DNA of 64,000 nucleotides from a virus (IMGVR_UViG_3300021255_000131:47049-111048); one strand, 5' to 3'. Shown: positions 3,106 to 46,900, counted from the stretch's first letter. The notes: a model not told the origin generated them from the letters alone. Numbers and translations are program-made.

Positions 3106-3609
3106 TTATTGATGTAGTTTGGGTTTAGCATTGGACGACGTGAGATGATAGAAATGATCATCCCGCGTCAGGATCTCTGACATCAGAGGTTTCTTTTCCC
3201 AGAAAGCTTTGAGCCTGGCGAAGCCCTGGTCGGCCACCCTGCCAATATCCGGATCGGGCACGCGCTTGATGAAGAGCGCGGGCCCTGTCTGATAGCCGGA
3301 AATATCGCACGGGAACCAGAACAGTCCGCCTTCCGGGTAGTATTTGCGCATCTTCTTGTTCTTGCGCCGGCCTGTTTGATACATCGTATCCCGCGTGCGG
3401 TAGCAGGAGAGAAAATCGATCATCTCCTCATGCCCGGTCAGCGTGGTGACAAGGACCTTCGGCATGGCGCCCAAGGTATTGTCCGGCTGAACGACGCGCC
3501 AGGGGGCGCGGCTTTCCGCCGTGCCCCTGGTTTTGCAGAGCACGTAAGAGGGAACGATGTTGCCTTTGCGCATATCCGTTTTCTTTACAATGGCGAGGTA
3601 GTAATACAT
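3106..3609 (-). CDS. Hypothetical protein (167 aa)
   Basis: ORF with AGGAGG RBS overlapping the end of the RNAP gene. Confidence 0.7.
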   Translation of the reverse strand: MYYYLAIVKKTDMRKGNIVPSYVLCKTRGTAESRAPWRVVQPDNTLGAMPKVLVTTLTGHEEMIDFLSCYRTRDTMYQTGRRKNKKMRKYYPEGGLFWFPCDISGYQTGPALFIKRVPDPDIGRVADQGFARLKAFWEKKPLMSEILTRDDHFYHLTSSNAKPKLHQ

Positions 3610-6404
3610 ACTTCCTCCTTGCGGCGCAGACGTTCTTTGACTTTGCTGGCGCGTTTAACAAGCTTCCTGTGCTTCGCCTGGCATTCCGGGCAGCGCTTTT
3701 GCCGACCATTGAGCCGGTGGCACCACTTGCCGCACTCGACACAGGTGAAGAACCCTTTGACTGCGGCGGAACAGCCGTGCTCTTCCGTCCAGACGGGCAG
3801 CTTTATGCCGCAGTGAACGCAGGTAACGCAAGTCATGAGATTCAGCTTGAGATTGCGTAATGCAATGTCTCCAAACACACGCCAGAACATTTGCTTATGC
3901 GCGGCTTTATCTTTTCCGTCGCCGACGAACAGGGTGTACGCGATGGACGGATACGCGGCTTCAATGCTGCCGCACAGCTCAGTGAGCTTATCTGTAATCA
4001 GTTCTTTGAGCGCCTCATAGCCGAAGGCGTTGTACATTTCCATAACGTCCATCATGGACGCTCCGTCAATTCTGGATTGCAGATTGCTGTCATCGAGCCG
4101 GGAAAAAAGTTCAACGGCTTCTGTGTTGATCTCCGTGACCGGAGCTTCCAGAAACATCTCGCCGTTGAAGGGTGGAACGCCTACTGCGTTTAAGTTGATG
4201 TTGCCGATATTATCAAATAAAGCGCAAAGCCTGTTCATGGTAGAATTGTTGGCTTTCGCGCACTGCTTCTTCTTTTTCGTCGTGTCTGCATGGCGGCCGT
4301 TCTTGGAGAACTGGAACCAGTAAGGCATCTTACCGTTCGGGCCGCCGATTGCTTTATTGATTTTCGCAGAGACTTCCGGATAATTGGTATAACCGTTGAC
4401 GGAACCTGTTTTGGCCCCGTCGATCGTGAGATTGTTGAAGTAACACAAAAGCGCGGCAGACTGTAAATCAGGATGCGGTCTGTTCCAAAGCCTGGTCAGG
4501 GCGTTTGAAATCTGGCCGATGCCACTGTAGTCATGCGCGCGCTTGACCCCGTGAAACAATGTTTCAAGGGAAATCTGTTCGGACGCGGCCTTGGTCGCGT
4601 CATAGAACAGGGGAACGATATCATACTCTTGAATGTTTCGCTTGGCGTTGTCGATCAGAATACGGTCTGAGACAACGTTGAGCTGATCTCCGTCTACATC
4701 GAACTGAAGAATTCTTGATATCAGATCATGACAGCTGGTGTAAATGCCGTTCGTGTAAAACCACGAGGCGATTTCCGGATCGTGATTGACGGTGCGAATC
4801 GCATGCTCGTTGAAAAGATGCGGACTCCTTAGAACATCTACCTCGTCTACATCCCTGAACGGACGGGCAAAGACTTCGCCGTTTTTCAACAAACCTTCCG
4901 GCTCCTTCTGACCGAGAAACCAGTATTGGCAAGCGGCATACAGATCCGGAATGGCAAACAGGCGTTTGTTTTTACAGCGTATTTTGCCGGACTTGGCGTC
5001 GAGCGTCCAACGCTTTTTGATTGCCTTCAAAGACTCTCTGGAATAAGCTTCGCGCAACAGCTCCGGATATAAAGTAAGCGCCTGACGATACGGGACTTCC
5101 GAATAATCGTCGGCGCCGAGCGCGTGAAGCATGTGTTCCCGGTCGTTCGAGAGGCTTTTGATCCGATCGTAGGTAGGCCTGACAAACTCCTTCAGCTCAT
5201 TCTGTGGAAAATTTTGAAGCGTTTGAATGAACTGATAGTTGAGCTCGCTGTTGCCAATGTACGCCTCTTCCATGTTGGTGCGGCCAAATGTACAGCCGCA
5301 GGTCTTGAAGAAGGATTTGTACTCATCCCAGCTGTCGTAGTACTTCCACAGCTTGAGTTGTGACTTGGTGAAGACGACCTGTATGTCTTCCGCGCGGAGA
5401 TCGTGCATCTGACCCCAGACGTCTTTCAGCTTTGCCTCGCAGCCGTTTTCCTCGCAGAAGCGTAGAAAATTAAAACTGCACAATAGGCCCTTTAAAAATG
5501 GACCTCGTATCATGAAATTCCATCTGGATACAGAAGGCAGCATCATGCCCGCGCCGTCACAATGGTTGATAACGACGGTCCGTTCGCCGCGCTCGATGGT
5601 GTAATCCGGACTGATATAATCCATCAGGCCGGTGACGGGAGCTTCAAAGTCGTCCACGACGATGCAGCGGTCAATATCGAGCGGGTAAGGATCCGTTGCC
5701 GAGCATGGCAGGGCCAAATACGCCATGAGCTTACTCGTATTAATTCCACCCCGTTCGTTGATGCGCTCCCAGCTGAGGCCGCACATAATGCGCGGCTCGA
5801 TTCTTGACCAGGCGTCGTCTGAGAGAAACTGCACCTTGTCCGTTCTGAGCTGGCCGGCCGAAGCCGTAGAAAAGCGATAGCGTTTGACGGAAACGGAGCC
5901 ATCCTCGTTCAGCACAGACATATTAAAACCCTGAAGGATGATCTGTCTTAAGATATCTTCTGATTTCCACTTGATGATAATCTTGTCGAAGGTGATGTCG
6001 TTTTCGTTCAGGCCGAGGGCGCGGGTTTCTTCTGATACGAACTCGGCGATGCGGCGGTTGGGTTTGAGCGTTTTCCACGTGACGCCCGGCGGGCGTTCTG
6101 GAAGCGTTGGATCGAGGACGGCGCTGAGATTCACCGTCCGGGGGACATGCTCGTGCGAAGCGATGAGCTTGGCGAGAGCGTTTTGCTGTACACGTTTTTC
6201 ATTGACGATTTCCTGACGGTTAGGTACGGTATCATTCAGCATGCGTTTCAAACGGGCGATGTTGAAGAAAATCACGCGCTCCTCGTCAGTCAGCAGATCG
6301 TACGTAGAGAAACTTGCGAGGCGGATTTGACTGCTCAGATAAGATTTGTTACTCGTGAAACCACCTCTTTTGAAAAGTAAAGCGGCATGTGCCGCTGGGT
6401 GCAT
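3585..6404 (-). CDS. Single-subunit two-barrel DNA-dependent RNA polymerase (YonO-like), RNAP-1; true start uncertain, possibly ~6356
   Basis: SAGQLRT, HCDGAGM...FMIRGPFLKG, VLRSPHL, catalytic QFDVDGD (4686-4700), C-terminal CxxC Zn ribbons. Confidence 0.88.
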   Translation of the reverse strand: MHPAAHAALLFKRGGFTSNKSYLSSQIRLASFSTYDLLTDEERVIFFNIARLKRMLNDTVPNRQEIVNEKRVQQNALAKLIASHEHVPRTVNLSAVLDPTLPERPPGVTWKTLKPNRRIAEFVSEETRALGLNENDITFDKIIIKWKSEDILRQIILQGFNMSVLNEDGSVSVKRYRFSTASAGQLRTDKVQFLSDDAWSRIEPRIMCGLSWERINERGGINTSKLMAYLALPCSATDPYPLDIDRCIVVDDFEAPVTGLMDYISPDYTIERGERTVVINHCDGAGMMLPSVSRWNFMIRGPFLKGLLCSFNFLRFCEENGCEAKLKDVWGQMHDLRAEDIQVVFTKSQLKLWKYYDSWDEYKSFFKTCGCTFGRTNMEEAYIGNSELNYQFIQTLQNFPQNELKEFVRPTYDRIKSLSNDREHMLHALGADDYSEVPYRQALTLYPELLREAYSRESLKAIKKRWTLDAKSGKIRCKNKRLFAIPDLYAACQYWFLGQKEPEGLLKNGEVFARPFRDVDEVDVLRSPHLFNEHAIRTVNHDPEIASWFYTNGIYTSCHDLISRILQFDVDGDQLNVVSDRILIDNAKRNIQEYDIVPLFYDATKAASEQISLETLFHGVKRAHDYSGIGQISNALTRLWNRPHPDLQSAALLCYFNNLTIDGAKTGSVNGYTNYPEVSAKINKAIGGPNGKMPYWFQFSKNGRHADTTKKKKQCAKANNSTMNRLCALFDNIGNINLNAVGVPPFNGEMFLEAPVTEINTEAVELFSRLDDSNLQSRIDGASMMDVMEMYNAFGYEALKELITDKLTELCGSIEAAYPSIAYTLFVGDGKDKAAHKQMFWRVFGDIALRNLKLNLMTCVTCVHCGIKLPVWTEEHGCSAAVKGFFTCVECGKWCHRLNGRQKRCPECQAKHRKLVKRASKVKERLRRKEEVCITTSPL

Positions 6405-6435: not shown

Positions 6436-6633
6436 ATTGAAAACCGGAGGCATCGTCTCTAAGTTGTTCTACTCCGAGGATCGTTTCGGCGGTGGCTGCC
6501 ACCAGGCGTAGCCTTGGTGGCAGCCTGAGCCGAAACGAGCCGAGAAATCGTAATTTAAGACGAAGCTCCTGATGACATCAAGAGTGCTAAACCCGCAGGT
6601 AAAGCCAGTGCACGATGCCTCCGGTTGTTCAAT
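6436..6633 (-). ncRNA. Retron-like msr/msd ncRNA located downstream of the RT gene
   Basis: Perfect 15-bp a1/a2-like inverted repeat (6442-6456 / 6612-6626, extendable to ~21 bp with one bulge); G at 6611 (minus strand) right after the 5' arm; two short msr-like stem-loops; 58-nt msd-like hairpin at 6481-6538. Confidence 0.75.
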
Positions 6634-7784
6634 CAGTTTGCATAACGCAATGCTTGTTTAATCATTACGTTTTTGTCGTACCACCAGATGTGAAACTTCC
6701 CTTTGGTATGATCGAACACATGCTTGGTGAATTCTGGTTCGATATAGCTGTAGTAGCTCCAGCGGCCGATGAAAGATTTGACCCAATCTTTTGACAGCGT
6801 TCCGCGGAAATTCTTGACGAAGTTGTACATATCCGCTTTGAAGAGCCGTTTCACCTGATGGCCGATGGTGATCTTGTGATCGGCGTTCAGCATGTAGCCG
6901 AGATTCCAGTTCGCGCCTTTGATGCTGCCATATCTGGTCTTTTTGCTGTTCAGTTTATAAGGATAGCCCAGCCTGAACAGGAGACCAAGGACATCGTGGT
7001 GGATGATGTATTGTTTGACGTGGCTGAAGTCGCCATAGCCTGAGATCAGACAATCGTCCGCGTAGCGGGTGTAGACATAGCCCGATCCCAGGACCCTGGT
7101 CAGCTCATAATCAAATGGGATCATGATCAGATTGGTGAGCATGGGGGAAAGCGTTGTGCCCTGCGGCAAACCGCCACGCAGGAACGCGTAGCTCAACGCC
7201 TTTTCGAGCTTTGCTTTTCTGGCCGGATCCTGCATAAATGTATTGAACGGCCAAATTGCGCCCAGAATATTCATGACTGTCGCGAGCGAAGTCGAGCCAA
7301 AGAAATCATGAAAATCGGTCTTCAGGAAGTAACTGCTGTTCTGATGCCGCTGGATGCACTTGTAGGTGTTGCGATAGCGGACGTAAGCGTAGGCCGCGCT
7401 GTGATACAGCGCGAAGAACCGCCTGCGGAGAATTTTCTCGATTTCTTCATGAACTTTTCTGAGCTCAGGCTTGGGATCATCGATGGGCCTGACGCCGCCG
7501 GAACGCTTTGGGATGGTGTAATGCTTGTACCAGCTTTCCGGATCGCCGGTGACGGTTTTCTCCGCCAGATCGATCACGGCGTCGAGCGCGGTCTCGGCCG
7601 CTTCCGCGTCAAAAAGGTAGGAGAATTCCTGCGGGACGGTGTTGGTTTTGATTGTTTTCGTCGCTGCGGAGCCGTACATGAAGTTGCTTTCAGCGCCCGG
7701 AATCTCAGGATCAGTGTCCATCAGAAGAGACATGTATATTTGTTCTTCGTTTGTTTTGCCAAAGAGGCGCCGCGTAATGTACAT
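6633..7784 (-). CDS. Retron-type reverse transcriptase (383 aa)
   Basis: YTIPKRSGGVRPIDDP, AYAY, KTDFHDFF, LPQGTTLSPMLTN, YTRYADD, LNSKKT; region 7 reads WNLG instead of VTG. Confidence 0.9.
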   Translation of the reverse strand: MYITRRLFGKTNEEQIYMSLLMDTDPEIPGAESNFMYGSAATKTIKTNTVPQEFSYLFDAEAAETALDAVIDLAEKTVTGDPESWYKHYTIPKRSGGVRPIDDPKPELRKVHEEIEKILRRRFFALYHSAAYAYVRYRNTYKCIQRHQNSSYFLKTDFHDFFGSTSLATVMNILGAIWPFNTFMQDPARKAKLEKALSYAFLRGGLPQGTTLSPMLTNLIMIPFDYELTRVLGSGYVYTRYADDCLISGYGDFSHVKQYIIHHDVLGLLFRLGYPYKLNSKKTRYGSIKGANWNLGYMLNADHKITIGHQVKRLFKADMYNFVKNFRGTLSKDWVKSFIGRWSYYSYIEPEFTKHVFDHTKGKFHIWWYDKNVMIKQALRYAN

Positions 7785-7794
7785 TTTAACTCCT

Positions 7795-8466
7795 TTACAG
7801 GGCGAGAACGTCCCAGGTTTCCGTATTGATCAGGATGGTTTTCTTGATGGTTTTCTTCTTGACGAAGTCAAGAAAGTTGACGACGCCGCAGGTGACGATC
7901 ATACGAACGGTGGCGGCGACGCCCAGTGTGACGCGGCACGCGGACATCGGCGTCTCCTGTGCCGCTTCCTCATGCGTGAATTGCATTGAAGCGATGAACG
8001 CTTCTTTCTGCTTTTCATTAGACCAGTCCGCCGCGTAATGCTGCGCGTCGGTCAGGCGTGTTCTGAAATCGAACATAGCCTTGATGAACGGATTGCTCTT
8101 GTTCTCTTCAGCAATCTTACGGCGCAGCTCGATATTATCAACGCAGAGGAAGACATAGCCGCTCAGCTTCTGATTGGTGTAGCCTTTGTCCGCGACGCGC
8201 AGAGATTCCGCGATTTCCGGGTTAATGGCCACAAGATGATCAGCCAGGGCTGTCACCTTTTCTTTGCCGATGTCCGCCGAAGTAAACATCTGGTTAACGA
8301 TGTTCTTGGGCTCAACGTAATCGAAATCATAGAGCGTGATGTCCTTGAGCCCGTAACGAACAAGCAGCTCCGCAAGCGTAGAGCCTACGGAGCCGCAGCC
8401 GATGATATGGATACGGCCTTCCGCCATGGAAGGCTGAAAGAAGTCATAGCTTTTCGACAGATCCAT
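7795..8466 (-). CDS. ThiF/E1-like adenylating enzyme
   Basis: IIGCGSVGS nucleotide-binding loop, DFDYVEPKNIVNQ, CVDNIELR, candidate catalytic Cys in TPMSAC. Confidence 0.9.
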   Translation of the reverse strand: MDLSKSYDFFQPSMAEGRIHIIGCGSVGSTLAELLVRYGLKDITLYDFDYVEPKNIVNQMFTSADIGKEKVTALADHLVAINPEIAESLRVADKGYTNQKLSGYVFLCVDNIELRRKIAEENKSNPFIKAMFDFRTRLTDAQHYAADWSNEKQKEAFIASMQFTHEEAAQETPMSACRVTLGVAATVRMIVTCGVVNFLDFVKKKTIKKTILINTETWDVLAL

Positions 8467-9296
8467 TACGAATAACTCCTTCCGTACGGATAGCCGCGAC
8501 CGTAAGGCGCCGTGCCATCGTCAAAAAGATCGTCGTAATCTTCGTACGGGTCCTCAGCGGCCTTTTTTTGCTTTTCCTTTTCCTTTTTCTCTTTCTTTCC
8601 GCCGTTGATAACCGTACCTGTAAAGACCGTTTTTTTAACCCTGGCCTGCGCGGCCTGAATGAAACTCGTTTTGGTGTAGGTGTTGTCCGTGCCGCCGTAG
8701 TCGAACACGATGGAGAGATCGATATCCTTCGTTTCATACATGACGTTGTTCGGGATATCGTAGATAGCGCTGCTGATTTCACCCTTCTTGTTCCAGATCT
8801 GGAAAATCCAGGCTTTATCAGGATCAGACGCCTTCATCAGATTCGCTCGGTGCGTCATATCGGTCGAGGAAGGGAACACGGCCATATTGACATGACTGTG
8901 ACCGTGAAAGAACATATGATCCGCCTGGTCCTGTGTGAGATGCTGCAGGAACATCGGGTAGCTGTTTTCGCCCTCGTAGACGGTGTTGACGGTCGTGCCG
9001 GTCACCTCCTGATCGTACACGAGGACGTCGTAGACGAGCCAGGTTCTGTCGCTGGTCTTGCGTACCAGGGCGTGCCAGCCGACCTCAGAATCGAATTTCT
9101 GAACGAGCAGCAGCATCTTGATGTACGCTTCCGCGGAATATGAGATGGTGGCGCGTTCTTCCGGCAGCGCGTCGCGGGACGCGAAGCTACGGGTGAAGGT
9201 GAAGTGTCCGTCGGACAGACGAGCCGTCTCGAGCTCCTTCAGGAACTCCTGTCTCATTTTCTCTTTATCGGCTTCGGTAATTGTAATCGGTTTCAT
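8466..9296 (-). CDS. JAB/MPN+ metallopeptidase (deubiquitinase-like)
   Basis: SEVGWH ... FHGHSHVNMAVFPSSTD fits the JAMM motif E..HxH(x7)SxxD. Confidence 0.85.
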   Translation of the reverse strand: MKPITITEADKEKMRQEFLKELETARLSDGHFTFTRSFASRDALPEERATISYSAEAYIKMLLLVQKFDSEVGWHALVRKTSDRTWLVYDVLVYDQEVTGTTVNTVYEGENSYPMFLQHLTQDQADHMFFHGHSHVNMAVFPSSTDMTHRANLMKASDPDKAWIFQIWNKKGEISSAIYDIPNNVMYETKDIDLSIVFDYGGTDNTYTKTSFIQAAQARVKKTVFTGTVINGGKKEKKEKEKQKKAAEDPYEDYDDLFDDGTAPYGRGYPYGRSYS

Positions 9297-10645
9297 TTCT
9301 GCTCCTTCAGTTTCTCCAACGCTTCTTTTGCGTTATATTCGTTGCCGTCCTTGTCGATGAGGACTTTTTCTTTCTTGGTGGTGGCGAAGAGCCGCTTCAT
9401 AAACGGGATAAAGGTGACGCCTGTCTCTGCCAGGTTGATAGACTGGCAGGACGCGACGCACTGCTCAATGGCGCCGATATAGTTGCTGTTGCGGATCGCC
9501 GTTCTGATCGGGTCGCGGTAAGAACCGAGACACTGATGATATTGCAGATGCGGATTCGGAAGATACTGACGGGTCAGCTCTTCCGGATATTCGTAATTGC
9601 GGAAGACGGCCACGTCCGTGTTGAGCGCGTATATGGCGCACAGACGAATGCGGAAAACCGGATCATCCGAGAAGATCGCGTCCATCAGGAGTTTGCGGTC
9701 TTCTACCTTGCAGAAAGGCGGATCGGCGGTCATACGGTAGATAGAGCCGTTCGAGGAGGCACGGCGATAAAAGTCCAGGTCGAACCAGTCTGCGGTCGTC
9801 TTGACGTAGAATTTGATGGTGCCGTCGGAAACGTTGACAAGCTGAAGGTTCTTGTGCCGCTTGAAATAATCGACAAGCTCGGTGCTCTCGTTCTTCGGTC
9901 GGGCGAGCAGGGCTTCATATTTAATCGTCGCGTCGTTGACCTTCTGCACCAGGCGGGCGTATTCGGCGACATTATCTTCGAGCGCCGCCCGTGCGACCCG
10001 CAGGGTGTTGTTGGTTTCATCAATACTGCGTTCGAGCTCGACGTTGGCGAAGCGCTTAAGCAGGACTTCGTTCAGCTCGTTCTCAAGACCGGACTGACGG
10101 ACCAGCTTCGCGATCATGGACTCGAAGTCTCCAGAGGTGCGCTTGGTCATGGAGAAGCATAACTTCTTCTCGTCATCGGTCAGCGGCTTTTCATCAAATG
10201 GCGTTTTGATAAACAGCGGGAGCAGCGACATAAGCATGTGCGTCTTGCGGGTATCGAGCTCCTGCGAGAAGACGACCGCGCTGTTGATATCATGGTTGAC
10301 GAAGATCTGGCAGCTCAGCCATTTCGAAAGATAGTTTTCGGCCTTTTCGAGCTTGGTGTAGGCGGGATGCGACGCGGCGAACGAATCGTCGGTCGTGTGA
10401 ACGATATTGAAGGATTTCGGCAGCTGCGTGTCCGGGATCGGCCACGACTCCTTAATGCTTCTGAGGGTCAGGGTTTCGTCTTCCGGCAGCCTGTTAAACA
10501 AAAGAATCCTTGCCGTCGCGAGGCATGTGCTATCATCCGAATCGAACGGGTAATGTTTATCGACGCTGATTCTGCTGAGGATTCCGTGTTCGTTGCCGAA
10601 CGTGTCGGTCAGGCCGCGGACGGTATTGAATGTTGCGCTGAACAT
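9293..10645 (-). CDS. Coiled-coil protein with putative C-terminal prokaryotic E2-like domain (450 aa)
   Basis: C-terminal YLPNPHLQYHQCLG resembles the E2 His/Pro...CL catalytic segment; lies between the Ubl and JAB/E1 genes. Confidence 0.6.
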   Translation of the reverse strand: MFSATFNTVRGLTDTFGNEHGILSRISVDKHYPFDSDDSTCLATARILLFNRLPEDETLTLRSIKESWPIPDTQLPKSFNIVHTTDDSFAASHPAYTKLEKAENYLSKWLSCQIFVNHDINSAVVFSQELDTRKTHMLMSLLPLFIKTPFDEKPLTDDEKKLCFSMTKRTSGDFESMIAKLVRQSGLENELNEVLLKRFANVELERSIDETNNTLRVARAALEDNVAEYARLVQKVNDATIKYEALLARPKNESTELVDYFKRHKNLQLVNVSDGTIKFYVKTTADWFDLDFYRRASSNGSIYRMTADPPFCKVEDRKLLMDAIFSDDPVFRIRLCAIYALNTDVAVFRNYEYPEELTRQYLPNPHLQYHQCLGSYRDPIRTAIRNSNYIGAIEQCVASCQSINLAETGVTFIPFMKRLFATTKKEKVLIDKDGNEYNAKEALEKLKEQK

Positions 10646-10667
10646 AGTTACTCCTTTTGTTTAAGAG

Positions 10668-10694
10668 GCTGCCGCGAGTAAACCGCGGCAGCCC
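10668..10694. terminator. GC-rich hairpin between the Ubl and E2-like genes
   Basis: GGCTGCCGCG-AGTAAAC-CGCGGCAGCC; no clear U-tract. Confidence 0.4.
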
Positions 10695-10701
10695 TGAATG
10701 A

Positions 10702-11316
10702 TTACTGAATGGTGATGAAGCCCTTGATCTTCTCCTGATCCGCGTGGATGGACGCGACGGCGTCAGCGAAGTTCTCCTCGATCTTGTTCAGATAGAGCAG
10801 GCCCATGCCGATCTTGTCGGTCAGCTGGGCTTCGATATCATTGTCGCGGTCGACGCACATTGTGATGGTGGCGTAGCCTTCCTGGTTCGTGGCCTCGGAG
10901 AAGGTGGCGCCCTTATCGTTGATAGAGCCGGAGGAGCGGGTGGTCACGTCGATGCCGAAGAGCTGCTCGTTCTTCTTATCGTCCTTGTAGAGCTTCAGAG
11001 CCTCGGGGCGATACTTCTTCGCGAGCTGAATATCCTCGAGCTTCAGCGCGGAGGTGACGACAGCGGCTTCACCGATAACGGTCACGGTGGCGGCGTTATC
11101 CGCCTTCACGACGACGGACAGGTAGCAGGCATCCTCGATACCGTGCTGCGCGAATGTCTTATCGAGATCGCCGGGACGCAGGGAGCATCCGTCGATCTGG
11201 GTCATGCCGACGGAATAGTTGACGCGGTTCTCGTCGAGAACTTCGCGGACGGTGGCGTCTTCAGAAACGTTGATGGTTTTGCGGCCGGAATTGGTGATGA
11301 GGGTGATCTGGATCAT
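10702..11316 (-). CDS. Ubiquitin-like (beta-grasp) N-terminal domain (aa 1-75, ending KADNA) fused to a ~130-aa domain of unknown function
   Basis: MIQITLITNSGRKTINVSEDATVREVLD...IDGCSL...DLDKTFAQHGI...YLSVVVK parallels the ubiquitin pattern; AAAGGAG RBS before ATG at 11316. Confidence 0.72.
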   Translation of the reverse strand: MIQITLITNSGRKTINVSEDATVREVLDENRVNYSVGMTQIDGCSLRPGDLDKTFAQHGIEDACYLSVVVKADNAATVTVIGEAAVVTSALKLEDIQLAKKYRPEALKLYKDDKKNEQLFGIDVTTRSSGSINDKGATFSEATNQEGYATITMCVDRDNDIEAQLTDKIGMGLLYLNKIEENFADAVASIHADQEKIKGFITIQ

Positions 11317-11514
11317 TGTGTTTTCTCCTTTTTTTGATCGATAGTGAATTAATTTGATTTTTTGTGCGGCAAAATACACCGCGCGGCAACAATACGCGCC
11401 GCCAAAAATATATGTGGTTGTTCAGATGATGGTCAGGCGCTCGGGCCGGCTCTCACCTTAATCATGCGCTGCCTCCTTTCCTGTTGGCATAAAGATATAA
11501 ACGGAACGCTCCGT

Positions 11515-11847
11515 TTACAGCAATGAAAGAAATTCCGCGGGATCCGCTTCGAGCTCGTTCATTTCCGACTCCGAAAGCAGCATCCAGTCTGCCCAGTTGT
11601 ATGCCCGGTTGAACTGTTTTCTGTGTTCCTCGTTCGGGTCGATGCACGACAATGTGTAGGTTCTGGCATTTTTATACGTTATCTCGCATTTGTATCCCGC
11701 GAAAGTTGTCATTTCCGGAACAACGGATGGGCTGCGATGGGATTCGATGATATCCGGATGGATATAGACGACGCTGCCCTCTTTAAAAAGTTTGGTGCCC
11801 TCTCTCTCCTTGCATCTTTGATTTGCAAGTCCTTCAAAGTTGAGCAT
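11515..11847 (-). CDS. Small SH3/KOW-like protein, EFxxML family
   Basis: FKEGSVVYI...WADWML...AEFLSLL*. Confidence 0.75.
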   Translation of the reverse strand: MLNFEGLANQRCKEREGTKLFKEGSVVYIHPDIIESHRSPSVVPEMTTFAGYKCEITYKNARTYTLSCIDPNEEHRKQFNRAYNWADWMLLSESEMNELEADPAEFLSLL

Positions 11848-11848
11848 A

Positions 11849-12055
11849 TCAGCCTCCGAGCATTTGAAAATGCTTCTTCTCTGTCGTCGTGTCTTCCGGC
11901 ACCTTTCTGAGCTGCGAGGCGCGGAAGTATCGCTTTCCTCCCAACTGGTTGCGGCAGGTGTAATAAACGTCTCCGTCCTGTCCGGTGTCTATGACCTCGT
12001 AAATGTCACCGGTGGCCACGTATAAAACCGCATCTCCGTTCTGATACCTTCTCAT
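11849..12055 (-). CDS. Small SH3/KOW-like protein, EFxxML family (degenerate tag)
   Basis: YQNGDAVLY...KHFQMLGG*. Confidence 0.7.
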   Translation of the reverse strand: MRRYQNGDAVLYVATGDIYEVIDTGQDGDVYYTCRNQLGGKRYFRASQLRKVPEDTTTEKKHFQMLGG

Positions 12056-12339
12056 ACAAGCATTCCTTCAAATTCTTCGGCCGTGACGGGGTCTTCCGTT
12101 TCCGGTGGGACAAACATGTAATCGGCCCAGTAAAACGGGCATTCCTCGAGCGTGTATGAATCCGGATGCACGTGTTGAATGGTCATTTCCTGGCCTCGGT
12201 AGTCGAGCATATCGCTGACGACGGACGGACCAAAATCGAGATCGTCGGTCAGGTCCGTTCTGACGACAACTTTATCGCCGACCTGAAACAGATCGGCATT
12301 GGCATGTTCCAAACAATATTCATCTGTCAATTCAGGCAT
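12052..12339 (-). CDS. Small SH3/KOW-like protein, EFxxML family
   Basis: FQVGDKVVVR...YWADYMF...EEFEGMLV*. Confidence 0.8.
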   Translation of the reverse strand: MPELTDEYCLEHANADLFQVGDKVVVRTDLTDDLDFGPSVVSDMLDYRGQEMTIQHVHPDSYTLEECPFYWADYMFVPPETEDPVTAEEFEGMLV

Positions 12340-12396
12340 ATTTGCTCCTTCATGAATCGTGTTGTTAGAAAAGATCTCCTTCGTGATATCCGGCGT

Positions 12397-12693
12397 TCAC
12401 AGCAGCATGGCTTCAAACTCAGTCATGGAAACGTCTTCTTCGGGCGGTACCAGCATATAATCCTGCCAGTAGTAGGTTCGTATACGACAATCTTCGCCGC
12501 TCAGACGATAATAGACACCCTTTCTCTGGGCGACGAAGGCTGGTTGTCCCGACAACTCGGTCATTAGCTCAGTGACGACCTTGCCATACGGCATCCTTTT
12601 TATCAGGTCCGGTCTGATGACAACGGCGTCTCCGACCTGAAACCATTCCGCTTTGCAGTGCGCTTGACAATAATCCGGTGTTAATTTTTCCAT
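12397..12693 (-). CDS. Small SH3/KOW-like protein, EFxxML family
   Basis: FQVGDAVVIR...YWQDYML...TEFEAMLL*; clear paralog of 12052-12339. Confidence 0.8.
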   Translation of the reverse strand: MEKLTPDYCQAHCKAEWFQVGDAVVIRPDLIKRMPYGKVVTELMTELSGQPAFVAQRKGVYYRLSGEDCRIRTYYWQDYMLVPPEEDVSMTEFEAMLL

Positions 12694-12707: not shown

Positions 12708-12781
12708 TAGGGCTTCTTGGACTCGAACCAAGGACCTGCGCTTTATAAGAGCGCTGCTCTGACCTGCTGAGCTAAAGCCCC
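12708..12781 (-). tRNA. tRNA-Ile(UAU)
   Basis: Cloverleaf GGGGCTTTAGCTCAGCAGGTCAGAGCA-GCGCT-CTTATAA-AGCGC...GGTTCGAGTCC-AAGAAGCCCTA; anticodon TAT. Confidence 0.9.
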
Positions 12782-12784
12782 GGA

Positions 12785-12855
12785 CTGAGGCGGCGGGAGT
12801 TGAACCTGCGATGCGGGAGTCAAAGTCCCGTGCCTTACCGTTTGGCGACGCCTCA
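12785..12855 (-). tRNA. tRNA-Gln(UUG)
   Basis: TGAGGCGTCGCCAAACGGTAAGGCA-CGGGA-CTTTGAC-TCCCG...GGTTCAACTCC. Confidence 0.9.
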
Positions 12856-12934
12856 ATAAAAAGAGCCTGCGTGCCGAACCTATAGCACGCAGGCTTGCGC
12901 AGAAAGGATTGCTGACTTGTTTCACATCAGCAAC

Positions 12935-13010
12935 TGGTGGAGACTGGCGGAATTGAACCGCCGGCTTCCTGCTTGCAAAGCAGGCGCTCTGCTAACTGAG
13001 TTAAGTCCCC
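12935..13010 (-). tRNA. tRNA-Ala(UGC)
   Basis: G3:U70 acceptor pair, CCTGC-TTTGCAA-GCAGG anticodon arm, encoded CCA end. Confidence 0.93.
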
Positions 13011-13110
13011 ACGTGCACCGGTTAGATTATAGCGCCCAAACCGGTGCCAAAACGACGTACAGAAGTGCCGGTCATGACTCCGGCATACTGCCCCCTGTAA
13101 GGCAGCATCT

Positions 13111-13180
13111 TAGACCCTGCCTGACTCGAACAGGCGCATAAGCCATACTCGCTTCGCTCTGCCAACTGAGCTAAGGATCC
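13111..13180 (-). tRNA. tRNA-like element with aberrant anticodon arm
   Basis: Intact acceptor stem, D arm (TAGCTCAGTTGGCAGAGC) and T arm (GCCTG-TTCGAGT-CAGGC); 4-bp anticodon stem with non-canonical loop GAGTATG. Confidence 0.65.
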
Positions 13181-13431
13181 ATATGCGCGTAAACCTCACC
13201 GATGTAAACCGCGCCGCTGCGTTCTTACGTCTGCCGACTTCTTCGCTTTTGCTCCATTAGCAGATCAAACGTCAGCTTTAACCGCTTCTCTCTTGTGCGG
13301 AGGTTTTGTTTGCAACGCTGCAAACAAGGTGTGGGATTGGATCAAAGGCAAGACTAATTGCGCAACCCAAGCCTTCTGTTCCAACGGCGTTGCGCGTGAG
13401 CTGCGCCATTTTCCGGCAGCTCGTCCCGACG

Positions 13432-13504
13432 AGGCCCCTGCGTGACTTGAACACGCGACAAGCTGGTTAACAGCCAGCTGCTCTGCCAGCTGAGCTAAGG
13501 GGCC
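13432..13504 (-). tRNA. tRNA-Asn(GUU)
   Basis: GGCCCCTTAGCTCAGCTGGCAGAGCA-GCTGG-CTGTTAA-CCAGC...GTGTTCAAGTCAC. Confidence 0.9.
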
Positions 13505-21219: not shown

Positions 21220-24033
21220 TCAGAAGTCCATCCCAGCCAGCCAGGAAGGTAATGCTGCCTTCCTGGCCTTTTCTTCGTGCGCTTCAACGCATTCCTGGCG
21301 GAACGTCTTCTCCGGAATAACGGCGGGCAGTATGGTACGCTCCTGTTTGTTTTCAGCGAGGATATCGCCGAAGCACTCCAGAATCGCCATCAGGTGACGC
21401 GCGGCGAACTTCTTGTTCCATTTGTCGTGGGCATGCGCCACATGCTGACGCAGAATCGCGGCGGCAGTCCAGCGAGCCAGCTCGTCGTCGGACATGTTGC
21501 CCTTATTGACACCTTGCATGAACGCAAGCGTCTCGTCGCGGACGTACTTGTAAGCGCTCAGCATTGCCTCTTCGTATTCAGCCGCTTCAAACGACGCTTT
21601 CGCGATCTTCTGGACTGCGCTGCTCAAAGTTTCGAACAAGAAGTAGATCGAATATTTTGTGTCTGCTGCGAAGACCTCCTTGCCGAGCATGTCGTTGTAT
21701 TCCTTGACCTTTTCAGCAGGAAGCACGTCGTTGCGCACCATGCGCACGTTTGCGCTGCAGCCGCCAGGCATCGCGATTTCCCAGCGGTAATCGATCTTAC
21801 TGAAGTCCGGCGCCCACTCGGAACCGCCGATGATCAGGTTGACCTGGTGGCCGAACCGATCTACGATGGACTCTGATTCGGGCAGGGTTTTCTCGTCCCA
21901 TCTCTGGTCGTTCCAAGGAGTTTCATCACAGTGTTTTGCAAACCGCTGGTTGTAAGGCATCGCGTTATAGTTTTGCCCGACGGTGCGAGCGATTTCCCGG
22001 AGCGCCTGCGGAAGCACGCCCGTCTTGATGTAGTCCAGAATCAGGATGGTCAGCACGTGCGGGATCGCCGCAGTTTCCAGGATGCCGCTGATGACGGAAG
22101 GATCCATGTCGATCCTGCAATCGTTCAGGATCTTGGTGCAGAGGTTGGAGTAGACGCCAACCTCGTTGTACCGTTCAGCGTCGATCATCATCTGAGCAGT
22201 CTGATTCTGCCACTCGTCCGTCTTGGGCAGCTTGCCCTTGGGTGCTTTGTCGTGGTCGAAGATCACGCAGGGCGGATTGACGCGATTGATGACTCGCTCC
22301 ATCAGGGAGACGAGCAGCGGATTCGAGGACCAGAAGCCCTCGTCTCCGTCGTTGTCACCGTCCCAGTAGCCGGACAGAACAGTGCTGTTCCACGGCAGGA
22401 TCATCATGTTGCCGCAAACGGCGAGCTCATCGTGCACCTCTACGTGAAGCACACGAGCGTTCAGCAGGTTGGCGGGATGGCGAATACCATAGATTTTCCG
22501 GCCATTTTCTACGCCGGTGACGCAGCAGGTCTTGCTGCTGTTGAAGACGCCGATCTTCTCCTTGGCCGGGTCCTTGCCAAAGACCCAGACGTCGATCAGG
22601 GCGTAGGGGTCCATAGCAATATATTCATAATGAGATTCTTCGATTGCAGGCGAGATCATTGCGTCTGCGTACTTGTTGTTAAACAGGTCTTCCAGGTGGT
22701 TGATGATGTCTTGATTTGCCACATAGTCCGGGAAAGCGCGGAAGAACTTGGCGGCGTTGCCGCATTCCTCCTCGTCGGCCCAGGGTTTTTGTAGTTCCTT
22801 TACACAGCCTTCAACTGTTTTCAGCTGCTTTACGCAAATGGCCTTAGACGTACCGAGCTTCCTAAGCTCGGCGTTGCTGGTGTAGACCAGCTCCTGCAGC
22901 GCCTGGCGGGAGAGATTTCGTTTGTCGCCTTCTGCCTTGTTGGCGAAGCCGCACACACGCAGCTCATCGATGCCGAGGGTTTCGAACGTGGTCCGATAGT
23001 CGTCGAGGCTATCAAACCATTTGAGGCCTTTGCAGCACGACTCGCTGAGAATGATATAGATACCATCAGTCGAGCGCCAAATGCCCTGATAATCTTTGAT
23101 CTTATCCGGTATATTCTCGACGATGGCGACGACGGCCATTGTCTTGTTGGTGCCGAGGCGACCCTGAAGGGAGAGGAAATTCTTGGTATCCTCGAGGCTA
23201 CGAGCGATGATTACGGACTGACCGTCGGCGATTGTTGCGTCCTCTTCGGATTCGGGAACGTATTTGATTGCGCCGGTTTTGGCGTCAATTTTCAACACGT
23301 TGGTATACTTCAACTGCCAGTTGAAGTCCTTAACGATGATCGCGTTCTTCAACGCTATCTTCTTCAAACCAAACCGACTGACCGGCACGCTGCCGGAGAA
23401 CAGCGTGCTAAGTACTTTGTTGTATTCTACGGGGTTGGTGCCCCTGTCGAACTGCTCCTTGGTGCGGAGCAGCGCGAGCTCCTTCTTGTATTTGGCCTGA
23501 ATGTCGACGCGAATAAGAAGAGATTTGCCGACCTTCAGGTAGGAAGGCGTTGAACACAAGTATTTCCAAACAAGCTGGCCAGACTGGATGCCCAGCTTCT
23601 GCAGGTTCTTGCCGACCTGCTTTTTGATTTGGCCGACAAGGAAGAAATATTGTTTTGCTTGATCCGCTGTGAAGTGGATTTCACAATTGAATTTCAGAAG
23701 GTTGTATAAGTGGTGTTCGAGTACGACGACGCTGTCGTCGAATTTATCGTACTCAATGTGGAGCATATCAGCTCCAGCGGATTCATCCATTGTAATGACC
23801 TTGGGGTCATCAATGGAAATGGTGTAGGGAACGGTGCGCTCCCGCTCCAGCTTCAGGATTTGCTGGGCGGCAGAGATCATTTTCTGGCAGATGTTGTCTT
23901 TCGAGTATAACGCTTTATTGAAGATGTCTGTCTCTTCCTTCGGGAAGAAGGCGGCCTGGCTGAAGGACCAGGTCATATAATGTTGTTTATTCAGGGCGGG
24001 AGCTTCAATGGCGCGTTCGATAACCTTAGACAT
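21220..24033 (-). CDS. Second single-subunit two-barrel RNA polymerase, RNAP-2 (937 aa)
   Basis: IADGQSV...LQGRLGTNKT, GIRHPAN, catalytic WDGDNDGDEG (22342-22356), VGVYSN. Confidence 0.8.
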   Translation of the reverse strand: MSKVIERAIEAPALNKQHYMTWSFSQAAFFPKEETDIFNKALYSKDNICQKMISAAQQILKLERERTVPYTISIDDPKVITMDESAGADMLHIEYDKFDDSVVVLEHHLYNLLKFNCEIHFTADQAKQYFFLVGQIKKQVGKNLQKLGIQSGQLVWKYLCSTPSYLKVGKSLLIRVDIQAKYKKELALLRTKEQFDRGTNPVEYNKVLSTLFSGSVPVSRFGLKKIALKNAIIVKDFNWQLKYTNVLKIDAKTGAIKYVPESEEDATIADGQSVIIARSLEDTKNFLSLQGRLGTNKTMAVVAIVENIPDKIKDYQGIWRSTDGIYIILSESCCKGLKWFDSLDDYRTTFETLGIDELRVCGFANKAEGDKRNLSRQALQELVYTSNAELRKLGTSKAICVKQLKTVEGCVKELQKPWADEEECGNAAKFFRAFPDYVANQDIINHLEDLFNNKYADAMISPAIEESHYEYIAMDPYALIDVWVFGKDPAKEKIGVFNSSKTCCVTGVENGRKIYGIRHPANLLNARVLHVEVHDELAVCGNMMILPWNSTVLSGYWDGDNDGDEGFWSSNPLLVSLMERVINRVNPPCVIFDHDKAPKGKLPKTDEWQNQTAQMMIDAERYNEVGVYSNLCTKILNDCRIDMDPSVISGILETAAIPHVLTILILDYIKTGVLPQALREIARTVGQNYNAMPYNQRFAKHCDETPWNDQRWDEKTLPESESIVDRFGHQVNLIIGGSEWAPDFSKIDYRWEIAMPGGCSANVRMVRNDVLPAEKVKEYNDMLGKEVFAADTKYSIYFLFETLSSAVQKIAKASFEAAEYEEAMLSAYKYVRDETLAFMQGVNKGNMSDDELARWTAAAILRQHVAHAHDKWNKKFAARHLMAILECFGDILAENKQERTILPAVIPEKTFRQECVEAHEEKARKAALPSWLAGMDF

Positions 24034-43963: not shown

Positions 43964-46900
43964 ATGGCAGACGAAATTGAACTATCAGTACATATAGACA
44001 ATCAACAAGCACTTATGTCGTTGACAGAATTAGAAGTCAAAGCCGGTGAGATGAGTGAAAGTGTTCAGCAAATGCAATCTGGTATGACAACGCAGCTTCC
44101 CGGTTATGCTGAAGGTATGGCGTTTCAGTATTCTCAATTTCAAGACAACCTGCAACGACTCATCGACTTAAGGCGAAGTATAGATACTGCATCCAGCAGT
44201 TTCGATGCAGATCGTTTGACAGAATCATTTACAAGGTCTTTAAAAACTATCGAAAACGTTTATAAAGATTTTACCGAAAACTTTCAATTTTCCAAAACGA
44301 TTGAAAGCAATCTGTCAGGCATGGGAGACGCTGTTAAGAACAATCTTCTTTCGTCTCTCAGAGAATTACAACCTGAATTGATTGGTGAACTACGGAAATT
44401 CGCAGCTTCGGCAACGCAGGCAGTCGGAGCACAAACAGATAAAAGCTTATTGAATATGTTTGCCGGCAGCGACGCATTTAAGAGACTACAGAGACAATTA
44501 ACACAACGTACTTCTGCTTTTGGCGGTTCTGACGACAGCTCTCTGCATAATCTTCAAACTCTTGCAAAATTAAGTATGCCATTTGCTGTCGCTCAGTATA
44601 ACAGACAACAAATCGTTGACTGGTTTGATAAGACCAATGCTCCCGAAACTTTTAGACAAATGCTTCCTAAAAGCTTTCAGACGATTCCGGCTTACCTTAA
44701 AAATACTCAACTCAGACAACGCGGGAGCAATGCTGCAGAAAACAGGCATTTGACAAACGATGAGAAGAAGGCTTTAGAAAGTATTATAACATCTGATTCG
44801 TTTGCCCTTGATGCCGCAGTTTCTCAGGGTATCGCCAGAAAGCATAACGGACGTATTTTTCTAAACGAATATACAACCAGAGAAATGATTAACGCTATGG
44901 CCGGACGTGTCATGCACGACATCGTCAACGGCGCTCAGGGCGAAGCGCGTTATGGAATTACTGATGTTGAAGATCCAGATGTCTTTTATAAGATCATTCG
45001 CAAAAACAATAAGATGCTGACTGGCAGTTTACAAACTGCCAGAGTGATGAACGATCGTTTTGGATCATGGTTGAATCCCGGATATTATGAAGCGTCTAAA
45101 GGTCGGTTTTCTGAAGGCGGCAAAGATTTAGGCACCGTTCGATTCGCACCGAGAATCGATACGCGCGCTTTTGCTGAATATACGCTCGATGAAATGAAAC
45201 ACGGCGCACAGTTCGACGGGCAACCAGTGACGGAAGAAGGAAGACCAGTCAGGCCAGAAGACTACCATCAGATCACATTGCGAGACAGTATTCATCACAG
45301 AAAATTACGCGCAACGCAGGCCGGTGACAATGTTGAACATAATGGTTTCAGCAGAAACGCTATCTACTTAAAAACTCCAGAAGAAGCTTACGATTATGAA
45401 ACTTCACCTGAAAGATTAAAAGAAATAGAAAAAGATTTAGCCGAAAGAATTGAAAATGGTTATACTGTCAATGGCAGACATTATTCATACGTCAGGCACA
45501 ATGCAACTCATGCCGAATTTGTTCTCGACGATATTATCAAAGAATTAGGCGGCGGGGATTTTGAAAAAGGCAGAAACGTATTTTTAAACGGTGCGCAAAG
45601 ACGATATACGGATCCTGTCAAATTTCATAAGGCGTTAGATTATCAAAATAAGACAGCTACCGACTCTCAAAGGATTGCTGACTTATATGGATCAGACTTA
45701 CGTGGCGCAAAAGTAGTTGTGTCTAACCTTAAAGAGCTCGGTATGGACGGCTTCAATTTAATAAGTGATGAAATTGTTCCGGCCAGCTTTCAAGGCAGAG
45801 AAAATGAGGCAGCCGAAAAAGCTACATATGTTAAGTTCAATATGGCCGGCTTACGAAAACTTTATAAAGATAAAATTGATAGTCAAGGCAATCTTGTTAT
45901 CCCTAAAGCTGCGCCTGGCGGACAAGATTTAGTTATCGGGCCGGATGTTACAATGATAGAAGACCAGGCCAACATAAAAAACTTTGATAGCCTGTATCGT
46001 GACAAAAAAGGAAATCTATTACCTCTTGAAGCAATTAATGCCGCCAGAAGCCAAGTTATGCAGCGCGGGGATCTTTCAGCCAAAGTAACATATGAAGGCG
46101 CTAATACTGAAAAAAGATGGTTGTCTCATCAGATGGTTCAGACTTTAGGTCCTGTTTTTACTCCTGAACTTCGGAAATACTTTATGCAAAATGTTTTCGA
46201 TGAATTAGCTTCGCTTGGTGACGACGAAACTGTACGTAGGAAATTATTTGGCGGGCAAAATATTGATTTAAATTCTCCTGCTGCTCAGCAGACTATACAG
46301 GATTACAGAGATTCTATTTTTGAAAGAATATCTCAAGGTGACCTTTTGGGTCCTGAAGGCGGTATTCAATACGGAATGGCTGCGCCGTGGGTTCCCAGCA
46401 TCGTCAACAAAGCATTGAAGCGTGCTGGAGTTTCGCTAACAAAAGAGCAGGAAAACGCTGCAATCGACGAAAACAACGTTTTATTCATGAACATGCTTGC
46501 CGATACGCTGGGCATTGTTCGCGCTCCGTATTCAGCAGAAGGCAACATTGTCGCCGGTAATGAAGCAGTAAAAGATAATTTTAAAGCATTGGTAAAAACG
46601 CTGGGCCTTGACCCGAATGGTTTATATATGGCGCCTGGCGCTCCAATGCTCAGCTTTATGCAAACAGAAGACTTTGACGGCGACATTAATGCTATCATGG
46701 ACTTAAGCGGCCAAGGCGTTAGCCGGAATAATCCACGCTTTGCTGCCGCCATGAATAAGCTAATGACAGACGCTCAAGCGTGGTACCAAAAAAACATTGT
46801 CGAAAGATCCGGCAGAACACAAGAAGAGCAAGAAGCATTAAAAGCTCAACGTACCATTCAAGCTGCTAATCAGCCTGGTGCCGTGTTCGACATGTTTGAT

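Follow-up and report, generated by a model that had tools for sequence, protein, structure and literature searches.

A phage operon combining a retron-type reverse transcriptase and adjacent ncRNA with a set of ubiquitin-like conjugation genes: a candidate new retron type

Gene content and layout of the operon

The stretch of DNA analyzed in this study, referred to as the window, comprises 64,000 nucleotides (IMGVR_UViG_3300021255_000131:47049-111048) and forms the right-hand end of a virus record of 111,048 bp, which is complete and has direct terminal repeats. Besides a terminase, a portal protein, a major-head-like protein and Dit, the window encodes a series of six elements, five of them open reading frames (ORFs), which run on the minus strand from position 11316 to 6442. 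These are a ubiquitin-like protein (Ubl) fused to a further domain (X), an E2-like protein, a JAB/JAMM metallopeptidase, an E1, a retron-type reverse transcriptase (RT), and a structured noncoding RNA (ncRNA) (Table 1). No close DNA relative was found among deposited phages, and the best record at the protein level was an unannotated faecal phage scaffold.

The genes are tightly packed. Four nucleotides are shared by the E2-like and JAB genes (ATGA, 9293-9296) and one by the JAB and E1 genes (TAATG at 8464-8468), and the spacer between E1 and RT measures 10 nt, with the TAA stop of E1 running into AAGGAG as a shared ribosome-binding site (RBS). The gene overlaps and the shared RBS show an arrangement predictive of translational coupling in the window operon. 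A GC-rich hairpin between the Ubl-X and E2-like genes may be an attenuator or a processing site. Scans for promoters and terminators gave results no better than those for shuffled sequences. An earlier note on this DNA, made from the sequence alone, had read the locus as Ubl, E2-like protein, JAB, E1, retron-type RT, and ncRNA. This composition was right, and the gene overlaps and the 10-nt gap with its AAGGAG, which the note had also listed, agreed exactly with the ORF coordinates. Correct as well was its observation that the RT stop touches the ncRNA arm, as pairing in the extended arm begins with the final base of the stop (6633).

Table 1 Features of the operon and the adjacent RNA polymerase gene, with positions counted from the first letter of the window
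Feature	Position	Strand	Size	Basis or remark
Ubl-X ORF	10702-11379; true ATG start 11316	minus	204 aa	AGGAG precedes ATG
Ubl, beta-grasp-type domain	11092..11316	minus	75 aa	N-terminal part of Ubl-X; ends ...V-V-K-A-D-N-A
Domain X	10702..11091	minus	129 aa plus stop	fused to Ubl C-terminus in the window
GC-rich hairpin between Ubl-X and E2-like gene	10666..10694	minus		read from sequence
E2-like protein	9293..10645	minus	450 aa	predicted UBC/RWD fold of C-domain; invariant Cys
JAB/JAMM metallopeptidase	8466..9296	minus	276 aa	full metal-site motif; profile match to Rpn11
Minimal E1, ThiF/MoeB family	7795..8466	minus	223 aa	Pfam ThiF 3e-24
Retron-type RT	6633..7784	minus	383 aa	PADLOC RT_II-A 1e-43
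Retron-like ncRNA (msr-msd)	6442..6626	minus	185 nt	fold z, a1/a2 stem, covariation
ncRNA arms a1 and a2	a1 6613-6626; a2 6442-6455	minus	14-15 bp	terminal arms; 15-bp a1/a2 stem
Unpaired G of ncRNA, candidate branch point	6611	minus		just after a1
Conserved ncRNA hairpin	6566-6584	minus	8 bp	fold and alignment A9
Long perfect msd-type hairpin of ncRNA	~6479-6541	minus		fold and alignment A9
YonO-like single-subunit RNA polymerase	3585-6404	minus		phrog_8308 4.7e-176; Pfam RdRP 2e-5

In relatives, Ubl is a free-standing 75-aa protein, and alignment of the split and fused forms placed its stop exactly at ...KADNA. X is in most relatives a separate gene just upstream of Ubl, and it was present in all 68 of 68 uncut loci that were collected by means of the RT (see below). 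Relatives of X were not found in Pfam, in a PDB profile search or in the ESM Atlas. The C-terminus of Ubl follows the pattern K-[AMTL]-[DSE]-N-A, which was near-invariant among 23 sequences and contains no Gly. Library scans gave no match of Ubl to any Pfam, PHROG, NCBIfam or PADLOC model, and its profile matches were weak but mutually consistent (ubiquilin UBL with E = 0.056 over residues 1-74, Rad60-SLD, TUG-UBL1, and DUF2604). X had not been recognized in the earlier note as a separate conserved component.

Three parts make up the E2-like protein, namely an alpha/beta domain at the N-terminus, a helix of 60 residues, and a C-terminal domain (residues ~252-450) with a UBC/RWD fold. Its structure was predicted with a predicted local distance difference test (pLDDT) score of 92 for the full length and of 95.9 for the C-domain alone. 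No match was obtained in Pfam, PHROG or NCBIfam, and PADLOC gave a marginal LmuB row (E = 0.0042). Foldseek searches against the PDB with the full model and with the C-domain returned nothing at E ≤ 0.001, and an ESM Atlas fold search returned nothing but unnamed viral clusters. VIA comparisons with the full model were swamped by the long helix, and a list of UBC and RWD neighbors came only from the separately folded C-domain. The top 50 entries of this list were almost all RWD, UBC or UEV proteins, which belong to the UBC superfold, and included the RWD domains of Knl1 and the SEA complex (Z 7.1-7.2), FANCL, the GCN2 RWD domain, and true E2s. Bacterial E2 proteins matched were BilB (8tyz_C, Z 5.4, superposed with a root-mean-square deviation of 3.4 Å over 85 residues), Cap2 (7to3_A, Z 5.1), and BubB (9eav_D, Z 4.1). 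Because each single Z is modest, the assignment to the UBC fold rests on the make-up of the neighbor list. As read from the model, the C-domain comprises a helix, a four-strand meander, a loop, and three helices. Residues N364-P365-H366 and C372, invariant in all 25 sequences of alignment A1 (24 homologues), sit in the loop after strand 4. E2s carry an HPN motif and the catalytic Cys in the loop after strand 4. We conclude that the E2-like protein, as modeled, is a UBC-fold protein with a conserved putative catalytic Cys372.

The JAB protein retains as invariant residues E71, H133, S134, H135, S143, and D146, which make up a complete JAMM site (E...HxH-x7-S-xx-D), followed by a low-complexity tail rich in Lys, Glu, Tyr, and Gly. 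Its profile matched Rpn11 (E = 3.4e-4), and no Pfam, PHROG, NCBIfam or PADLOC model recognized it. The E1 is a single ThiF domain (residues 13-202) with the invariant elements GxGxxG, DxD..N..NQ, D110, R115, and C177 in TPxSxC. Its PDB matches include MoeB, UBA5, Cap2 (1.1e-6), and MccB, and it matched PADLOC E1-E2 models with values down to 4.6e-19, while staying below the cut-off of every NCBIfam model. The complete cascade of the earlier note is an inference, given that Ubl terminates in Asn-Ala in place of Gly and that one adenylation domain of 223 aa makes up the whole E1.

The RT is of the retron lineage, and its YxDD box is intact. Its best PADLOC matches were all retron RTs (RT_II-A, III-A, and I-A), and the NCBIfam model retron_St85_RT matched at 3e-46 with 158 bits, which is below the curated cut-off of 235. 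Within the YADD box (residues 241-244), A242-D243-D244 were invariant and Y241 was found in 16 of the 17 sequences of alignment A5. An N-terminal extension of ~80 aa is specific to the clade. None of the genes neighboring the RT matched a PADLOC retron-effector model.

The ncRNA lies on the RT strand and has the a1/a2 repeats and the long msd hairpin of retron ncRNAs. Its fold of -104.8 kcal/mol (z = -9.55) was not equaled by any of 200 shuffled sequences. Alignment A9 was composed of the window ncRNA and six RNAs from the same place in the nearest relatives, whose RTs are 42-58% identical. RNAalifold detected 29 consensus pairs among these seven RNAs, and 20 of the 29, spread over the arms and both the small and the long hairpin, showed compensatory changes. 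At the position just after a1, five of the six other RNAs have a G aligned with that of the window. A conserved G at this place is as expected of a retron branch point, and position 6611 is a candidate priming site on these grounds. The window contains the ncRNA only once, on the 3' side of the RT gene, whereas classical retrons carry msr-msd upstream of ret.

In more distant relatives, the 5' part of the RNA is related but not the same. This msr part was used to build a covariance model (R1), which found 126 copies in 61 sources, all of them on the RT strand, and had no match in the window or in the rest of the phage genome. As the RNA of the subclade to which the window belongs is diverged, it was aligned apart from the R1 set. 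In 31 of 33 more distant loci, one ncRNA copy precedes the RT gene by 200-400 nt, as in the classical retron arrangement, and zero to seven additional copies are typically located downstream. In the subclade of the window, by comparison, the upstream copy has been lost and one copy (two in L116) is retained downstream. Arrays of the ncRNA were seen at 8432-13685 of L052 (~8 copies), at 6652-8519 of L008 (three), and at 7147-7523 of L116 (two in tandem). The long hairpin differs from copy to copy within these arrays, so that a single RT seems to act on several templates.

Linkage of the RT and the cassette across phage loci

The co-occurrence of the RT with the Ubl cassette was assessed in loci collected by means of either protein. 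From at least 527 stretches encoding an RT relative, 80 IMG/VR loci with RTs 34-58% identical to that of the window were taken as the RT-anchored set. Ubl, X, E2-like protein, JAB, E1, and RT were found on one strand and in one order in 68 of these. The other 12 were incomplete, most of them because they are cut near a contig end, but not L033 and L062. Among the uncut phage loci of the RT-anchored set, the cassette accompanied the RT in 68 of 68. Conversely, all 21 E2-anchored IMG/VR loci carry the RT; they were recovered with an alignment, as a query with the single E2-like sequence gave nothing. In species-representative genomes, 48 of 79 loci were complete and most of the remainder were cut. 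Nearly all of these 79 loci are contigs of gut metagenome-assembled genomes (MAGs), mostly labelled Clostridia, and the hosts of the module-bearing phages are probably Clostridia. The same block was found at every locus reached via distant E2-like proteins (24-33% identity) or via abundant RT homologues. The flanks are not conserved, with homologues of the RNA polymerase (RNAP) at 15 and of Sak at 12 of 159 loci, in contrast to E1 at 142. The E2-like family numbers 2,427 representatives at 50% identity (1,226 at E ≤ 1e-30). Thousands of uncultured phage lineages share the pairing of a retron with a Ubl cassette.

Few loci with sufficient flanking DNA departed from this pattern. L132 and L137 keep the RT without the cassette; clear ncRNA matches were found in L132 and only a marginal one in L137, and an E2-like gene was present neither on the contig of L132 nor anywhere in the MAG of L137. 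One locus has a deletion from the end of Ubl into E1, and two have inserts of 6-7 kb between E1 and RT. A cassette without the RT was not seen at any locus, including the 21 E2-anchored ones. The RT is hence not strictly dependent on the cassette, because two loci keep it alone. This pattern fits a retron core with a modular effector, since RT and ncRNA survive alone in rare loci and no cassette was seen without the RT. The earlier note had regarded its proposal of one phage-borne unit as lost if RT homologues rarely co-occurred with the cassette or if the 450-aa protein lacked a UBC fold. Co-occurrence proved near-universal in the neighborhood survey, and structure prediction gave a UBC/RWD-type fold with an invariant Cys, so that linkage and fold both support the proposal.

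Several further genes occur within the module or at its borders in relatives. A gene for a DHH/DHHA1 phosphoesterase (RecJ/NrnA-like; Pfam DHH 2.2e-5, below the cut-off) lies between the E2-like and JAB genes of L001 (1191-2126), and a protein of 256-269 aa without known family is encoded between E1 and RT in about a third of the loci (e.g., L008 5828-6637). In L132, an ORF that overlaps the 3' end of the RT gene (9758-10378) encodes what we take to be an RNase HI-like protein (...GHAGNVENERCDALA...).

In the window, the module is followed on its 3' side by the YonO-like RNAP and then by the Sak annealing protein. Throughout the window's subclade it lies directly upstream of genes for the YonO-like RNAP, Sak, the single-stranded DNA-binding protein SSB, and a DnaB-type primase-helicase. 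A second YonO-like RNAP paralogue of 937 aa (21220-24033, minus strand) is far more diverged (phrog_8308 2.3e-22 vs 4.7e-176). The YonO-like RNAP of L114 (7437-10960) and L115 (3385-6746) is present as two ORFs (561/522 aa and 370/363 aa, respectively) with an HNH_3 endonuclease gene between them, which suggests the insertion of a homing endonuclease or an intron in the polymerase gene. On the other side of the module, a run of small paralogous proteins (95-110 aa; 11515-12693, minus strand) is encoded immediately ahead of the Ubl gene. No Pfam family matches these proteins, which have acidic C-terminal tails in common (...EFLSLL, ...EFEGMLV, and ...EFEAMLL), and similar small proteins ending in ...SLL precede the module in L003 (1928-2443). 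Five tRNA genes (Ile-TAT, Gln, Ala, Tyr, and Asn; 12708-13504, minus strand) are located 1.4 kb upstream of the module, and an Rfam scan of the window detected tRNAs only. Within the structural module of the phage, a single ORF of 5,918 aa (43964-61720, plus strand), a candidate giant virion or tail protein, lies directly upstream of the gene for the Dit-like distal tail protein (61799-62893).

Proposed mechanism and rival explanations

We favor the interpretation that the operon represents a new retron type of large gut-bacterial phages, in which a Ubl-conjugation set is the accessory (effector) module, and we put the probability of this reading at roughly 0.6. According to the proposed mechanism, the RT would copy the msd of the adjacent ncRNA into multicopy single-stranded DNA (msDNA), primed from the conserved G beside a1. 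Synthesis of msDNA is expected because the RT has retron-type motifs and the covarying RNA is of the retron type. JAB would cut the Ubl-X precursor right after ...Asp-Asn-Ala and release the 75-aa Ubl and the X protein. A cut after Asn-Ala is proposed because the free-standing Ubls of relatives end at this place, and because of precedents in Bil, where the BilC peptidase exposes Gly97 of BilA (PMC10557695), and in Bub, where the JAB domain of BubCD cuts BubAB after G229 (PMC11601596). Judging from its family, the minimal E1 would adenylate the C-terminal carboxylate of Ubl, and the fold and conservation of the E2-like protein suggest that Ubl would then pass to Cys372 and from there to a target. 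The E2-like protein would dock on the RT-msDNA complex, and conjugation would depend on, or be aimed by, the state of the msDNA. This docking step rests on the near-obligate co-inheritance and on one weak in-silico interaction result. The predicted complex of the E2-like protein and the RT scored 0.49 (runs 0.46, 0.49, and 0.53), compared with 0.00 for the best of three controls. In the calibration, 58 of 80 solved complexes and 2 of 110 mismatched pairs passed the mark, and the passes at ≤0.60 comprised only 7 of the 80 solved complexes but both of the mismatches. The runs agreed in at least 84% of contacts with a partner pLDDT of at least 79, and the prediction lends weak support to an interaction of the two proteins.

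By analogy, the role of the module is most likely one in conflict, either interference with host defence or exclusion of competing phages. We favor such a role because every characterized relative on both sides works in conflict, as characterized retrons and bacterial Ubl-conjugation systems all act in phage-host conflict (PMC7736814, PMC10557695, PMC11601596).

Several points weigh against the retron interpretation. All biochemical steps are deduced from sequence, fold or family, and phage genes can keep their order even if they are not functionally coupled. Z values of the UBC-fold matches are modest (4-7), Ubl does not end in Gly and owes its ubiquitin-like assignment to sub-threshold profile matches, and the E1 is devoid of the separate Cys domain that canonical E1s have. 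In the score range of the predicted complex, wrong passes outnumber right ones, except where the guess was likely beforehand. In addition, L132 and L137 retain an RT without the cassette, no toxin-like effector is present in the module, nothing points to what is tagged, and the position next to genes for replication and recombination would be compatible with a core function in the phage as well.

The adjacency of cassette and RT is kept at identities of ~25% for the E2-like protein and ~35% for the RT, while the genes on both flanks change. This makes it unlikely that a phage retron and a phage Ubl system are two independent, uncoupled systems that are adjacent by inherited gene order. Such independence would agree with the synteny that phage genomes often keep over long distances, with the tolerance of 6-7-kb inserts between E1 and RT (L062, L138, and L139), and with the persistence of RT and ncRNA in the two loci without a cassette. 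It is at odds with the lack of any cassette without an RT, with the overlapping genes and shared RBS of the window, with the ncRNA copies located between E1 and RT in most loci, and, weakly, with the predicted RT/E2-like interaction.

We also consider it improbable that the module belongs to the core gene set and serves phage DNA metabolism, with msDNA, possibly carrying or recruiting Ubl or X, acting in replication, recombination or packaging. This explanation retains some weight because recombination genes adjoin the module in the window's subclade and because the module is retained near-universally. The RNAP, Sak, SSB, and primase-helicase genes directly downstream in the subclade, the breadth of the E2-like family (2,427 representatives), the rarity of loss, and the several ncRNA copies per genome in relatives all fit it. 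In most relatives, however, the neighbors are different genes, the cassette has been lost or has decayed in L132, L137, and L154, and the precedents from characterized retrons and bacterial Ubl systems cited above point to conflict.

We give little credence to a further proposal, in which Ubl would be attached not only to proteins but joined covalently to the msDNA, the ncRNA or the RT-msDNA complex, or in which the variable msd hairpins, present in relatives as up to eight different copies per phage, would guide the charged E2-like protein to chosen nucleic-acid-bound targets. If true, Ubl on a retron product or msd guides would constitute a nucleic-acid-programmed or -directed ubiquitin-like conjugation system. 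Finally, a sulfur-carrier or adenylation pathway (ThiS/MoaD, TcdA or MccB type), in which the E1 and the beta-grasp protein modify msDNA, ncRNA, phage tRNAs or a peptide instead of tagging proteins, is very improbable: it draws on the minimal ThiF/MoeB-type E1, whose best PDB and NCBIfam matches include MoeB, ThiF, TcdA, and MccB, and on the five tRNA genes nearby, but the Ubl ends in Asn-Ala and not in the Gly-Gly of ThiS/MoaD sulfur carriers, the module universally includes a JAMM peptidase and a protein of the UBC fold whose Cys is invariant, and library scans revealed no sulfurtransferase, rhodanese or cysteine desulfurase gene in the operon.

Comparison with known retrons and ubiquitin-like systems

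Retrons are sorted by their effectors, and the study of bacterial Ubl-conjugation systems (Bil, Bub, and CBASS Cap2) is a young field. Full-text literature searches found no paper on the pairing of a retron or RT with a Ubl cassette, in line with the statement of the earlier note that no characterized retron is known to have a ubiquitin-like cascade as partner, and the pairing is absent from the retron classification, Bil, and Bub papers (PMC7736814, PMC10557695, PMC11601596).

Retrons consist of an RT, an msr-msd ncRNA, and an accessory effector and have been classified into 13 types (Mestre et al. 2020, PMC7736814). The operon resembles them in having an RT of the retron lineage with YADD, with the type II-A and St85 (Sen2) family profiles as the nearest, in having a structured RNA on the RT strand with a1/a2 repeats, a G beside a1 and a long msd-type hairpin, and in having accessory genes co-inherited with the RT. 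It differs in its six-part Ubl-conjugation set, which occurs in none of the 13 types, and ThiF, ubiquitin, and JAB are not mentioned in PMC7736814. A Ubl set takes the place of a nuclease, of an NDT, TIR or protease domain, or of a membrane protein as the accessory module. Moreover, the RT stays below the St85 family cut-off (158 vs 235 bits), the ncRNA of the window lies downstream of the RT while its relatives have one upstream copy and up to seven more, and the module is encoded by a lytic-type 111-kb phage and not by a bacterial defence island.

Bil systems of types I and II (Chambers et al., PMC10557695) likewise combine Ubl, E2, a JAB-type peptidase, and E1 in one operon, and their peptidase pre-processes the Ubl. 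The predicted UBC-fold E2 with its conserved Cys and the JAB with its complete metal site agree with Bil, and the E2-like C-domain superposes on BilB. However, the Ubl described here ends in Asn-Ala, whereas the terminal Gly is universally conserved in Bil, and the E1 is a one-domain protein of 223 aa, in contrast to BilD with its inactive adenylation, active adenylation, and Cys domains. No match to Bil-type or Prok-E2/Prok-JAB models was obtained for Ubl, the E2-like protein or JAB in PADLOC, Pfam, and NCBIfam. Unlike in Bil, the E2-like protein has 450 aa with two extra domains, X, RT, and ncRNA are additional components, and the system is phage-encoded.

Type II CBASS with Cap2/Cap3 shares E1-type adenylation, an E2-type Cys, and a JAB that acts on a C-terminus which is not necessarily that of classical ubiquitin, and there, too, the conjugation machinery is attached to a nucleotide or nucleic-acid polymerase of a conflict system. 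The E1 matches the E1 region of Cap2, and the E2-like domain superposes on Cap2 (Z 5.1). In contrast to the fusion of the two in Cap2, the E1 and the E2-like protein are separate here. The six operon genes do not include a CD-NTase, and there is no cyclic-nucleotide effector; instead, the module has a dedicated Ubl, and its polymerase is an RT with an RNA template.

With Bub (Ye et al., PMC11601596), the operon has in common a Ubl fusion precursor, which in Bub is cleaved by JAB/JAMM to expose a reactive C-terminus, and an E2-like fold that weakly matches BubB (9eav_D, Z 4.1). Bub uses Ser/Tyr oxyesters and a Ubl-E2 fusion, whereas the E2-like protein described here has an invariant Cys and its Ubl is fused, if at all, to X; Bub also has no RT or ncRNA. 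The PRTRC cassette of plasmids and integrative conjugative elements is similar as a set of a ThiF-type E1, an E2-like protein, and a small beta-grasp protein borne by mobile elements. Membership in PRTRC was rejected, as the E1 reached 37.1 bits compared with the PRTRC_ThiF (TIGR03736) cut-off of 144.75, and neither ParB nor a match to other PRTRC proteins was found.

Because the module lacks at least one tested defining feature of each of Bil, Bub, CBASS, and PRTRC, we file it as a putative new retron type and not as a member of any of these systems. If this assignment is true, a retron with a Ubl/E1/E2-like/JAB partner would be the fourteenth retron type, mechanistically unlike the others, and would also be the first ubiquitin-like system tied to an RT, with genes that reside in phages and not in their hosts. 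The family occurs in abundant gut phages, and all of its proteins other than RT and E1 belong to undescribed families. The module offers a Ubl that is putatively activated at a C-terminal Ala after Asn, and a tractable route to how a nucleic-acid product can control protein tagging. Its compact RT-ncRNA units, sometimes organized in arrays, may also be useful as retron tools.

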